NCBI GenBank assembly: GCA_025823825.1
Contig: GCA_025823825.1_4720.1
Length of the DNA: 64,000 nt
Origin: a phage
Direction: 5' to 3' (one strand)
The notes under the pieces are model-generated. The model saw only the letters and a list, made by a program, of their open reading frames with translations. It was not told the origin of the DNA and made no database searches. Below, piece by piece: positions 987 through 25,167 of this stretch. How positions within the stretch are numbered: the first letter of the stretch is position 1; each line of letters opens with the position of its first letter. A program made the translations under genes and the position numbers.

Positions 987-1619
987 TCAAGACTTCACAA
1001 CGCATTCGACTTCGTCGTTCATATAGGCTTCGTATAAAGACAGTACTTCCTTCATTTTAATTTCAGGTAACGCAACAGAACGAATCGCTTTCAGGATATT
1101 CCGTGTCTGATGATGTTTAACCTTCGCTTCACGTAGTTTACAGAATTGACGGATGCAGGTATTAACTTTACCACCTTCCGCACGTTCGAGGGCGACGTGC
1201 AGTTTCAGATCCAGTAATACTTCCGTGAGTTCCTGGGTGGCAGGATCGTTACGAATAAGTCGCACCGTCCGTTCATCCGGATTCAACATCGTGAGGAACT
1301 GAAGCTTGATCTGTTCAGGTACGGGTTTCGTGTTCATCATGATGGCGTCAAACTGTTCCTTAACATCCAACTCATTGAACACATAACGTTCGATGTGTAC
1401 GACGTGTGCTTTTCCCGACTCACCGTAAATCGCCATCGCACGATAGTCATCGAACAACACAGCATACAACAAATCCTGTTCCGGTCCGATGGTACCATCG
1501 ATGAGCTTCGGGGCGTGTTTCCTAAAGAAGCCGTAGCGAACCGCTTCATCCGGCATGAGCGTCCACGCATTAACGGGCTGTTTTACGAGTTCCATGTAAC
1601 ACCTCATCAAGATTATCAC
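987..1619 (-). CDS. hypothetical protein
   Basis: 210 aa ORF in the minus-strand gene array; true start may be an internal Met. Confidence 0.5.
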   Translation of the reverse strand: MIILMRCYMELVKQPVNAWTLMPDEAVRYGFFRKHAPKLIDGTIGPEQDLLYAVLFDDYRAMAIYGESGKAHVVHIERYVFNELDVKEQFDAIMMNTKPVPEQIKLQFLTMLNPDERTVRLIRNDPATQELTEVLLDLKLHVALERAEGGKVNTCIRQFCKLREAKVKHHQTRNILKAIRSVALPEIKMKEVLSLYEAYMNDEVECVVKS

Positions 1620-1878
1620 TTACGCCAGGCGGTACCACAATACCGGTACGAATCACAGCAGCAACTTCCTGCATGCCCTTACCCTTCAACGCATAGGTTT
1701 CATGTACCACATTACGTCGAGTCGTTAATCCAACAAATTTACATACAACCATGTTGTTTTCTGAAAGATAAGCGGTGTCGAGTTCACCGTGCAACAATTC
1801 TTTTTCTTTGGTATCAATACCTAATAACGCAATTTGATAAGCAGAAAGTTTCCAATAACGCATAATCGTCCTATTCAT
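1570..1878 (-). CDS. hypothetical protein
   Basis: 102 aa ORF; overlaps neighbour by 50 nt so boundaries uncertain. Confidence 0.3.
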   Translation of the reverse strand: MNRTIMRYWKLSAYQIALLGIDTKEKELLHGELDTAYLSENNMVVCKFVGLTTRRNVVHETYALKGKGMQEVAAVIRTGIVVPPGVSDNLDEVLHGTRKTAR

Positions 1879-2698
1879 AAACTATCAAATATTCTGAAAC
1901 CAAGTTTCTTGTTTCTACTTTTGCCGAAATCGTTCTTCGTACAGTTACAGGGTACAATTTTGTCGCCGAACTATAAATCTCTTCAGTCAACGCACAAGCA
2001 CTGTTGCTAATGATTGTAGGAATTCCCCGCGAGCGCAAGTTGTCAGCCTTTTCTGCAAGATAACGATGATCGTCTAATGTAAACCCCTCTTGAGTATAGC
2101 CCGTAAACGATGCGGTGGGGGAAATGGGAATATAAGGAGGGTCGCAATAAACGACGTCACCCGGAACCACCTTTTCAAGATGCTTCTGGAACCCACCACT
2201 TACAATTTCTACCCCCCCCCCCTCGACGAAGGCAGCCTGAAGATGGTTCGCTGCCAGACGCAATTCCTGTTTCGGGAAATAGACGGTCTTATACCGCCCA
2301 TGCGCAACATTAAATAAACCATCACGATTATAACGACATAAGCCATTGAAACCGTAACGGTTTAAATACATGAAGCAAACTGCGCGTTCCCACGGATCTT
2401 CAGCGCGGTTAAAACGTTCACGTATCTCGTAGTAGCTTCTGACGTCGGTAGGATCCGTTTGAAAAAGACGTTCCACTTCTTCGATGAAAGATTCTGGACG
2501 CGCTAGCAACGCAGACCATACTGAGAGAATATCCTCATTCGCATCACCTATCGAATACGCTGGGTACTTAAGAGCAAGCGTAACAGCGCCGGAACCAACG
2601 AATGGTTCAACAAGACGCTTTCCTTTAGGTAACACTTTTTCAATCTCAGGGATAAGCCTGGTTTTGTTCCCAAGCCATTTAAGAAATGTTCTGCTCAT
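1871..2698 (-). CDS. dam: DNA adenine methyltransferase (Dam family)
   Basis: 275 aa; N-terminal WLGNKTRL and FVGSGAV SAM-binding region, catalytic DPPY motif. Confidence 0.85.
   Translation of the reverse strand: MSRTFLKWLGNKTRLIPEIEKVLPKGKRLVEPFVGSGAVTLALKYPAYSIGDANEDILSVWSALLARPESFIEEVERLFQTDPTDVRSYYEIRERFNRAEDPWERAVCFMYLNRYGFNGLCRYNRDGLFNVAHGRYKTVYFPKQELRLAANHLQAAFVEGGGVEIVSGGFQKHLEKVVPGDVVYCDPPYIPISPTASFTGYTQEGFTLDDHRYLAEKADNLRSRGIPTIISNSACALTEEIYSSATKLYPVTVRRTISAKVETRNLVSEYLIVYE
2212..2222. repeat. C11 (G11 on coding strand) homopolymer inside dam CDS
   Basis: Eleven consecutive C on plus strand; encodes E-G-G-G-V in frame of dam. Confidence 0.9.
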
Positions 2699-3113
2699 CG
2701 ATTGGCGTTCCGATAATGTTGATGACTATTTCCGTTCGAACCGGATTGGTCAGTACGGCCTGCATGCGTTCAAGCATTGTTGGGTTATCCGTAACCACCA
2801 CATCGGCGTAACACAACGGATGACTTTCGAATGCTTCGGTGTCACTTACTAACAGAACACCCATCACATTTACGTATTGCGGTATGCGTCCACGGATGCG
2901 TTGCCACATGTCTTGAGTAAGGTCTTCGTTTTCTAATGCCACCACGATGACAGGGCTGATATTTACCGGGAAACGCGGATGCACCGTGCGGCGAAAGGTC
3001 ACCCAGCTTTCGACGTGGGATAATGCAAGTTCGAGAGAACAGCACTTTGGAGAAATCTGTATGTTTATTTGCTGAATCAATGAAAGGGGGTTTTGTACAG
3101 TCGCTTCAGCCAT
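2679..3113 (-). CDS. hypothetical protein
   Basis: 144 aa ORF contiguous with neighbours. Confidence 0.4.
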   Translation of the reverse strand: MAEATVQNPLSLIQQINIQISPKCCSLELALSHVESWVTFRRTVHPRFPVNISPVIVVALENEDLTQDMWQRIRGRIPQYVNVMGVLLVSDTEAFESHPLCYADVVVTDNPTMLERMQAVLTNPVRTEIVINIIGTPIDEQNIS

Positions 3114-4372: not shown

Positions 4373-4561
4373 CGCAGCATACCAGCCATGCCAATTACGG
4401 CAAACAGTATACCAACAGCGCTATATGCGAGCAACGCCTTAGCAACCCAAGATTTTATTTCCGTATACTCTTCATTATTCACCACGTTTCACCTCGTTCG
4501 GTTGTTGTCCGATCTCATACCTTTACCTAAGCGTATCCCCGTCGTTAAGACGGGGTGCTTA

Positions 4562-23647: not shown

Positions 23648-25102
23648 ATGAAACTCAAACAAAGCTGGAAAGACGAACTTCTCGCGTTAGTAAACAACAA
23701 AAACAGTTTACAGCTGACATTAGACGACGTAAAATTTGAACTAACTGAACCGGTAAGCGAAGTGCCCGGAACAGTCGTCGTTACGATCAAACCGAACGAT
23801 GATAGCCGTTACTTTAACGAGCAGTCTCTGACCTACATCCGTCGAGACATCGCTAAAAACTTCACCGGGATCCCGTTACGTGTTATCGTTAAAAATGATA
23901 CCGTCGTAAGGGATATCATCAATACGATTGCTGAACGTTACGGATTGGTATTTGACACAACCGTTGACTTCCTCGAATCAGAGCTGAATAAGCAGATTAC
24001 GTTCGAAGACACCGGTATTAAAGACATTACGGTTCCGGTTGCAAACACGTCTTATGTTTGGGCTGGTAATCTTCAGTTCAATATCGCTAACGATACGTTA
24101 AGCTTGATTACGATCATCAAGGAAACCAATCTTACGAATCTGGTTTATCTGGATGGCGTTGAAGCTGACACAACCGGATCGTTATTATTAGCAACGGCCT
24201 CGATTATCGACGATAACGGAAATACCGAAACAACTGAAGGTGTCCTTGATGCCGAGTACTTCCAGAATGTCCTGAATGTCATGGTTCGTTATGGTGATAT
24301 TACCAGCGAACAAATGCAACAAGCAATGCAGACAATTAACCAAAACGAAGACGTTCGTGAAGTGGAGGTTAAGTCATACGGCGACTCTGAGCTGTTGGTA
24401 ACCACAAAGAAAGATTGGGCTATCGGTAACCTTAAGGGCGCTATGGCAGTTGTTCGCAACGCTCAACCGAAACCAATTCAGTACATTCTCAAAACGAATG
24501 GCGGCTCCGTTACACTAGCATTGGACGGTTGGACAAATATTTCCATCGATTGGGGTGATGGGAATAAAGCAACATTACCAGGCGGACAAACTCGCGGATT
24601 CCACGAATACAGTGACGGTACAGAACGTACGATTGTAGCTACTGGTGTCCTCTCAAACCCTGAAGCACCAACACAGACACAAACCATCAGCGGCGATAAC
24701 ATCACTGAAATCGTTGACTGGAACAACGGATTACCGCAGGCTGTACAATTAACGGGATTAACCAGTTTGATTAAGGTTCCCGATTATATCCCGTCATACT
24801 GGACAACGTTGGAAAGTTTGTTCGAGAGCTGCTCATCGATAAACGACGTAAACATCACGAAATGGAATACCGGTAACGTCACATCAATGAAGAATTTGTT
24901 CTTTGGCTGTAACGTCTTCAACCAACCGATCATCGTATGGGATGTTACCCATGTAACAAATATCGACAATATGTTCTCGGGATGTTCGGCGTTCAACCAG
25001 GATCTAAGGATGTGGTCATTCCCAGCGGATACTTCCCGCAACAACTACGATAACGGTGCTACAGCCTGGCGGTCAGAGTATCGTCCAAGCTTCGATTTGT
25101 AA
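23648..25102 (+). CDS. DUF285/BspA-like repeat protein
   Basis: 484 aa; C-terminal repeats of F.GC..FNQ.I..WDV..VT...MF; family assignment from memory. Confidence 0.6.
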   Translation: MKLKQSWKDELLALVNNKNSLQLTLDDVKFELTEPVSEVPGTVVVTIKPNDDSRYFNEQSLTYIRRDIAKNFTGIPLRVIVKNDTVVRDIINTIAERYGLVFDTTVDFLESELNKQITFEDTGIKDITVPVANTSYVWAGNLQFNIANDTLSLITIIKETNLTNLVYLDGVEADTTGSLLLATASIIDDNGNTETTEGVLDAEYFQNVLNVMVRYGDITSEQMQQAMQTINQNEDVREVEVKSYGDSELLVTTKKDWAIGNLKGAMAVVRNAQPKPIQYILKTNGGSVTLALDGWTNISIDWGDGNKATLPGGQTRGFHEYSDGTERTIVATGVLSNPEAPTQTQTISGDNITEIVDWNNGLPQAVQLTGLTSLIKVPDYIPSYWTTLESLFESCSSINDVNITKWNTGNVTSMKNLFFGCNVFNQPIIVWDVTHVTNIDNMFSGCSAFNQDLRMWSFPADTSRNNYDNGATAWRSEYRPSFDL

Positions 25103-25117
25103 AAAAAAAAAAAAAAA
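25101..25117. repeat. A17 homopolymer tract overlapping the stop codon of the DUF285 gene
   Basis: Seventeen consecutive A counted on plus strand. Confidence 0.9.
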
Positions 25118-25128
25118 TAGTTAGCATA

Positions 25129-25167
25129 TCTTCCTCCCTACCCATAACGGGCGGGGAGGAAGGTTTT
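25129..25167 (+). terminator. hairpin CTTCCTCCC...GGGAGGAAGG followed by TTTTATGGCG
   Basis: Inverted repeat and T-run seen directly between convergent genes. Confidence 0.55.

Follow-up and report, generated by a model that had tools for sequence, protein, structure and literature searches.

A guanine tract as a probable contingency locus in the accessory orphan Dam methyltransferase gene of Goslar-like jumbo phages

Repeats within methyltransferase reading frames switch DNA methylation by frameshift in bacterial phasevarions, such as those based on the mod genes of Haemophilus, Neisseria and Helicobacter, or the type IIG enzyme of Campylobacter (PMC4889913). Contingency loci of phages have been recognised only recently, in Campylobacter phages in 2021, and in T2 and T4 in a 2025 preprint. 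In T2, a run of nine adenines (A9) in the glucosyltransferase gene agt toggles DNA glucosylation against TgvAB and McrBC: slippage by one base gives null alleles, which revert ~1000-fold more often than a point mutant, such that the population is mixed for its modification state, with the trade-off between TgvAB and McrA/BC having been measured directly (Gomez, Barrick & Waters, bioRxiv 10.1101/2025.10.21.683753). The Fletchervirus phages of Campylobacter are reported to carry polyG tracts of 7-11 bases in several open reading frames (ORFs) per genome, those of receptor-binding proteins, which give rise to ON and OFF subpopulations (Sorensen et al. 2021, Cell Rep 35:109214). In Bordetella phage BPP-1 and its relatives, which are temperate podophages, a methylase gene is reported to contain a polyG tract (Liu et al. 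2004, J Bacteriol 186:1503) that, as the preprint citing it puts it, was not studied further.

The locus described here, a run of eleven guanines (G11) within the Dam methylase gene of a nucleus-forming jumbo phage, resembles each of these systems in part. As with agt, a homopolymer is found in a DNA-modification gene of a virulent coliphage, although the present case is known from natural polymorphism alone. As in the Fletchervirus phages, the tract is composed of guanines within an ORF, but there is only one in 64 kb, and it lies in a methylase gene rather than one for a receptor-binding protein; moreover, Campylobacter is not known to possess mismatch repair, in contrast to the enterobacterial hosts of the present phages, which are proficient in it. 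The likeness to BPP-1 is a polyG tract in a phage methylase gene, albeit with a methylase of a different kind, and that to the phasevarions is a repeat whose length sets the frame of a methyltransferase, although phasevarion genes are chromosomal restriction-modification genes that rewire host expression, and the present gene encodes an orphan Dam in the genome of a virulent phage. The type of system is therefore already known, and no report of the Goslar-like dam case was found in the literature. It is probable that the G11 tract is a simple-sequence contingency locus in an accessory orphan Dam gene of Goslar-like nucleus-forming jumbo phages.

The DNA analysed (the window) is a stretch of 64,000 nucleotides, 93.7% identical to Escherichia phage vB_EcoM_Goslar, a nucleus-forming jumbo phage. 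The dam gene occupies a cassette of ~850 bp (1866..2714, minus strand) that is missing from Goslar, and is positioned between the orthologues of Goslar_00125 and Goslar_00124. A search for close DNA relatives of dam among collections of phages, plasmids and complete E. coli genomes matched Goslar alone, from which the gene is missing, and the best matches to Dam among phage proteins did not exceed 44.5% identity. The Goslar junction bears a weak resemblance to the 5' end of dam, which might be a remnant and a hint of deletion in Goslar, but the similarity is too weak to accept loss by deletion as proven. Immediately upstream is a putative gene of 144 aa (2679..3113, minus strand), the end of which overlaps the start of dam by 20 nt, which has the same length in all loci and for which family searches gave no match. 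Downstream, a putative gene of 97 aa (1570..1863, minus strand) begins 8 nt past the dam stop codon. In all the relatives fetched, dam was flanked by these same genes. Goslar-like phages are common as ~240-kb contigs in isolate assemblies of E. coli, Salmonella and Shigella, apparently reflecting persistent or carrier-state infections (PMC12768965, with 237 Goslarvirus contigs; bioRxiv 10.1101/2024.12.31.630880); a text search of these two sources found no mention of the methylase or the homopolymer. The window has fewer GATC sites than expected (282 against 423, a ratio of 0.67), a deficit that is compatible with a history of selection at this sequence.

With the tract at G11, the dam ORF (1871..2698, minus strand) is in the ON frame, and its 275-aa product is identified by profile and structure matches as a Dam-family N6-adenine DNA methyltransferase. 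The product aligned with the whole of the Pfam D12 profile PF02086 (positions 1-253 of 253; E 2.3e-60, 204.9 bits against a cutoff of 22), and scored 256.8 bits against TIGR00571 'dam' (cutoff 114.85), without reaching the threshold of the E. coli Dam equivalog NF008152 (272.7 vs 441 bits). Structure matches were to E. coli Dam (2g1p/4gol, E 1e-68), DpnM (2dpm, 9e-42) and T4 Dam (1yfj, 1e-14), with which the phage enzyme has a common fold and motifs. The AdoMet-binding motif I (EPFVGSG, aa 31-37, 2588..2608, minus strand) and the catalytic motif IV (DPPY, aa 186-189, 2132..2143, minus strand), both assigned from the sequence, are invariant in a 40-sequence alignment and flank the target-recognition region in the order typical of the alpha class. 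Full-length matching above the curated family thresholds, combined with this motif order, places the product in the D12/Dam class. Its specificity is probably for GATC, to judge from homology, given that every one of the best solved relatives is a GATC enzyme, and that the base-contact residues of E. coli Dam are for the most part identical. Equivalents of K9, N120, L122, R124 and Y138, residues with roles in the E. coli Dam-DNA structure, are conserved in the alignment, whereas Y119 is replaced by Phe, and P134 by Ala, in the phage enzyme. Identity to these known Dams is ~44-48% at best. The dN/dS ratio is ~0.1-0.15 upstream and downstream of the tract alike; hence the whole enzyme, including its C-terminal half, is under long-term purifying selection.

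The tract itself extends over 2212-2222 on the minus strand, and spans dam codons 159-163 (GAG GGG GGG GGG GTA; E159 G160 G161 G162 V163). The letters, and the reading frame of the ORF, thereby confirm what was claimed in the sequence-only reading, that a G11 run encoding EGGGV is found inside the Dam coding sequence; its attribution to the coding strand stands, although on the plus strand, as the DNA was given, the letters are C (C11) and not G. By chance, only ~0.002-0.01 G/C runs of 11 would be expected in 64 kb, and a G/C run of at least 10 was generated in none of 100 first-order Markov simulations of the window. Furthermore, the G11 tract is the sole G/C run of at least 6 in the 64-kb window, where ~8 would be expected. 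GGG is the rarest glycine codon in the window's ORFs (15%), and therefore three in a row (0.149^3 = 0.003) do not reflect codon preference. Both a chance run and codon preference were rejected as the origin of G11 on the basis of this run expectation, the simulations and the rarity of GGG. The tract is a real, slippage-prone site.

The position of the tract within the protein, between the target-recognition region and DPPY, coincides with a clade-specific insertion of 6-7 residues, (A)FVEGGG (aa 156-162, 2213..2233, minus strand), which was recognised from alignment and an AlphaFold2 model (mean pLDDT 88.9, pTM 0.88). In this model, the insertion closes helix 143-158 and forms the turn that leads to strand 162-166. 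The alignment of E. coli Dam with the phage enzyme has a 7-residue gap at this point, and the (F)VEGGG segment is missing from all 34 of the more distant Dam homologues aligned, the extra loop being confined to this phage clade. The loop tolerates substitution, as natural variants include E/K and G/R/E/K changes.

The suggestion that a change of a single base in the tract would frameshift the methylase proved correct, since G10 yields a product of 162 aa, and G12 one of 174 aa, both lacking DPPY. Two stop codons account for these lengths. The -1 and +2 alleles use a TAG directly after the run (2209..2211, minus strand), giving 162 aa for G10 and 163 aa for G13, and the +1 and -2 alleles use a TGA 12 codons on (2175..2177, minus strand), giving 174 aa for G12 and 173 aa for G9, with the tail ...GRNCKWWVPEAS. 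The G8 and G14 alleles are predicted to be in frame, with the normal stop. Every frameshifted product keeps motif I and the target-recognition region, and loses DPPY and everything beyond it; hence the truncated proteins should be inactive, as far as their sequences allow this to be predicted. In the manner of a contingency locus, the tract lies inside an ORF, its length sets the frame, and a change of one or two bases truncates the product at 162-174 aa.

These alleles occur naturally. When the exact predicted products of the window allele were looked up in a collection of 15 billion proteins, each length from G9 to G13 was represented: the 173-aa G9 product in 1 contig, the 162-aa G10 product in 7, the 275-aa G11 product in 5 contigs listed (and at least 10 contigs examined), the 174-aa G12 product in 7, including three NCBI E. 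coli O157 proteins and a 239,671-bp contig, and the 163-aa G13 product in 4, with G9 and G13 seen as exact protein matches only. Among these exact-product records, P0121 and P0123 match the alleles that end at TAG, and P0122 and P0124 match those that end at TGA. The predicted G7, G8, G14, G15 and G16 products of the window allele were absent from the same collection. The resulting stepwise, unimodal spread of lengths centred on 11 would be the pattern expected from slippage. A homology search with Dam further identified five full-length relatives (77-93% identity) and one truncated relative of 174 aa, and other sublineages have 162-, 163- and 174-aa forms of their own; the predicted OFF products of four lineages (P0141, P0145, P0132 and L020) were not on record, with an uninterrupted tract being known for L020 only. 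Among the cluster members listed, ~47 contig instances were broken at the tract, 1 was broken elsewhere and 81 were full length, the corresponding counts being 12 against 13 for the members listed of a sister clade. One Salmonella assembly annotates both halves of Dam as adjacent proteins, and there are sets of three NCBI isolate assemblies with one and the same OFF allele.

A look-up by the dam protein returns ON alleles only, and therefore the DNA was sampled through the exact 97-aa protein of the downstream neighbour, using contigs from three assembly sources (NCBI, ENA and Logan). Ten distinct places were recovered in this way, with the tract being G10 in two, G11 in three, G12 in three, and interrupted in the remaining two (G5AG5 and G4AAG5); the exact 202-aa neighbour protein returned no contigs when used as a handle for OFF-allele DNA. 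The G10 DNA (L029 and L031) and G12 DNA (L024, L028, L030 and L034) each occurred in at least two flanking backgrounds, differing by 1-5%. The contig L034 (SRR15970248), the only one to encode the window's exact 325-aa neighbour, differs from the window in a single additional G over 4,978 bp, making the tract G12. Among other sequence sets, SRR15841266 and ERZ27264763 have G10, ERR11836920 has G12 and ERR13071153 has G11. An OFF allele, G6AG5, was present in two runs, and corresponds to the near-identical G5AG5 genome with one G added to a run of five and the ORF otherwise intact. Across the OFF alleles, the frameshift is the only lesion, and its repair in L002 restores the full ORF. Pattern scans for the tract flanks had no matches in GTDB genomes or IMG/VR, and a metagenome scan found three loci. 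Hence tract length differs while the flanks are unchanged, with ON and OFF lengths both present, as is characteristic of a contingency locus. The earlier proposal of a phase-variable switch is therefore backed by the natural G9-G13 products, the G10, G11 and G12 DNA, and L034, from which we infer switching itself. For frequent, reversible switching there are indirect hints, namely contigs that break at the tract (P0128-P0131) and equal tract lengths that come up again in different backgrounds. The other explanation offered earlier, an assembly error in this window, is not supported, as the frame is intact at G11 and at least 10 independent contigs have this allele.

Comparisons between lineages differ in how informative they are about the history of the run. 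An uninterrupted G11 is present in at least three sublineages (the window, L006 and L020) with pairwise dS ~0.3, but this conservation is not significant alone as evidence of retention (a chance of roughly 0.4 per pair). Of the comparisons of G-run conservation, the one that counts is with the sister clade. Its members, found on ~248-kb contigs, have ~77% amino acid identity to the present clade, with dS saturated, and the one DNA read from this clade (L010) contains a G9 run. The sister-clade proteins listed comprise ON forms, as well as OFF forms with lengths and tails fitting shifts of -1, +1 and +2, with three E. coli O157 assemblies having one split allele in common. The survival of a run of at least G9 across saturated dS, together with the three GGG codons, has a chance of roughly 0.003-0.02. 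The run has also been interrupted by at least five independent G-to-A changes that keep the frame, namely GGA GGA GGG, GGG GGA GGG, GGG GAG GGG (Glu), GGG AAG GGG (Lys) and AGG (Arg). These interruptions stabilise the ON frame, and suggest that the instability of the tract is often selected against rather than for.

If the tract is a contingency locus, slipped-strand mispairing during phage DNA replication would add or remove guanines, with G11 specifying the full 275-aa enzyme, G10 and G13 terminating at the TAG, and G9 and G12 terminating 12 codons later. Further slippage could then restore the frame. A phage population would be expected to consist of a mixture of Dam-ON and Dam-OFF genomes, and its virion DNA to be methylated or unmethylated. 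The phage nucleus presumably keeps host Dam out, as would be general for chimalliviruses, and hence the phage enzyme alone would set the GATC mark. Any benefit may lie in bet hedging between hosts, or defences, that favour methylated GATC and those that favour unmethylated GATC, as demonstrated for DNA modification state with the A9 run of T2 agt.

The same polymorphism might instead reflect a mutational hotspot without adaptive value in an accessory gene that the phage can do without, which we regard as possible but rather unlikely. The OFF alleles would then represent recurrent losses of function, tolerated when, for instance, the phage grows in the carrier state within one host culture, and the tract would be a liability that G-to-A changes remove. 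Several observations that count against a contingency switch lend themselves to this explanation. Goslar has no dam, and thus manages without it under laboratory conditions at least; E. coli, Salmonella and Shigella, as the known hosts, are all Dam+, such that the OFF state would have no obvious benefit in them; about a third of uninterrupted tracts are in frame, which is the fraction that unselected drift in length would give; and the at least five G-to-A interruptions include several independent, stable ON alleles. However, a gene that was merely tolerated would not readily account for dN/dS being ~0.1 downstream of the tract as it is upstream, nor for OFF alleles being free of secondary lesions. 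It is also at odds with the rarest glycine codon being kept three times, with the run having survived the split from the sister clade, and with the tract being situated in an insertion unique to the clade.

Two further alternatives dispute whether the lengths, or their consequences, are as they appear. Long G/C homopolymers raise the frequency of indel errors, and if the true tract were G11 everywhere, the G9, G10, G12 and G13 calls would be errors of Illumina sequencing or of assemblers. Contigs do break at the tract, where the NCBI partial proteins P0128-P0131 end or start, and the odd tails EGRGWGG*, EGVGG* and EGKGGG* (P0147, P0148 and P0152) resemble noisy reads; hence technical noise could contribute to some length calls in other assemblies, and part of the length variation between assemblies could be homopolymer calling error, which also counts against a switch. 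Yet consensus error should not make OFF alleles at least as frequent as ON among uninterrupted tracts, nor have them recur in NCBI isolate sets of three assemblies, nor place G10 and G12 in all three assembly sources. Moreover, G6AG5, which was present in two runs, arises by an addition to a stretch of five guanines, too few for homopolymer error, while the synonymous GGA codons and the Glu, Lys and Arg replacements are true evolutionary variants at the site. Artefact as a general explanation is therefore very unlikely. Programmed recoding, whereby the phage RNA polymerase or the ribosome slips at the G-run, such that one allele produces both full-length Dam and a truncated N-terminal protein with the AdoMet-binding and DNA-recognition parts, or such that OFF alleles are rescued, is more improbable still, as is the variant in which the split halves (162 aa, and a C-terminal ORF of 99-113 aa) reassemble into an active enzyme. 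A C-terminal ORF is indeed predicted by gene callers in OFF alleles (of 99 aa in L029 and L031, and of 113 aa in the sister clade), and chimalliviruses transcribe with RNA polymerases of their own, which might slip. However, the well-documented cases of bacterial transcriptional slippage concern A/T rather than G runs, and the genomic length polymorphism suffices to explain the data.

A more specific role, in which Dam ON and OFF would constitute an epigenetic switch of lifestyle or host range peculiar to nucleus-forming, persistently infecting phages, is a speculative extension of the contingency locus that we consider improbable. The GATC mark on progeny DNA, or its absence, would decide the outcome of the next infection, possibly by allowing DNA that is still outside the nucleus to evade GATC-directed or methyl-directed nucleases. 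Alternatively, the mark might affect whether infection leads to productive lysis or to the carrier state, the condition in which these phages occur in hundreds of bacterial isolate assemblies. Goslar is the only plaque-isolated member, and is without dam, which would fit a link with persistence.

To the systems already described, this locus adds a long tract in a window otherwise free of G/C runs of at least 6, the involvement of a Dam methylase gene, and a setting in nucleus-forming persistent phages. Dozens of natural ON and OFF alleles are already public, and the sister clade has a G run with the same kinds of allele. One consequence is for annotation, in which dam frequently appears as a pair of fragments or under the label 'partial'. 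Sequence archives already contain read-level data for testing switching. Since these phages persist in clinical isolates of E. coli, Salmonella and Shigella, methylation state may differ between stocks, and such a difference would matter for tests of host range and for therapeutic use.

Homopolymers are generally avoided throughout the window. Not one G/C run of length 6-10 occurs anywhere in it, although about 8 are expected; the count of A/T runs of at least 6 is 13, compared with an expectation of about 54. The tetranucleotide GATC is also depleted across the window (282 observed against 423 expected, a ratio of 0.67), ranking second after CTAG among the 16 palindromic tetranucleotides. Besides the G11 tract in dam (2212-2222, minus strand), the sole long homopolymer in the window is an A17 run at 25101-25117, which begins within the TAA stop codon of a 484-aa gene (23648..25102, plus strand), in a convergent intergenic region, and is adjoined by a GC-rich hairpin at about 25131-25164. 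The same site in Goslar carries A11 (385-395 of locus L021), hence the length of this A-run, too, differs among relatives.

Several Dam proteins labelled 'partial' by NCBI (P0128-P0131) either stop about 5 codons ahead of the tract or start just past it, meaning contigs break at the G homopolymer, and these breaks are a source of fragmentary dam annotation. They hint at mixed tract lengths, or at poor coverage there. In the sister clade (P0156 and P0158; 897-908 of locus L010), the tract is followed by a GTG codon instead of GTA, and gene callers predict a 113-aa C-terminal open reading frame (MEIVRGGF...DPPY...) in OFF alleles; the start of this predicted frame coincides with the end of the G-run. 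Lesions elsewhere in dam are rare by comparison with the 47 tract-broken contig instances among the matches listed, and are carried by two alleles, P0153 and P0150: one of these is 230 aa, with a frameshift directly after DPPYIPI, and the other is 257 aa, having lost 18 residues through an in-frame deletion.

This virulent jumbo phage occurs as 134-248-kb contigs in NCBI isolate assemblies of E. coli (O157 included), Salmonella and Shigella, as judged from five loci (L011, L012, L024, L030 and L033) and the NCBI accessions of the listed Dam proteins; earlier papers (PMC12768965; bioRxiv 10.1101/2024.12.31.630880) already describe these as lytic phages that are persistent or assembly-associated. 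The dam gene is present in the assembly-derived relatives that were fetched, but absent from Goslar, the sole plaque-isolated representative of its genus (window segment 1866-2714 against 4381-4400 of Goslar locus L001). The Goslar junction, ATGCTTCTTAACAGTTTGGGTGATAAC (L001 4381-4400), loosely resembles the 5' end of dam, ATG...TTTCTTAAATGGCTTGGGAAC, which suggests that the gene may have been deleted in Goslar, rather than inserted in the other phages. Among loci L024-L033, the relatedness implied by the left flank of the tract conflicts with that implied by the right: between L025 and L031, for instance, there is 1 difference in 1141 positions of the left flank, but 43 in 2142 of the right. 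Such conflicts indicate that co-circulating Goslar-like phages recombine frequently.
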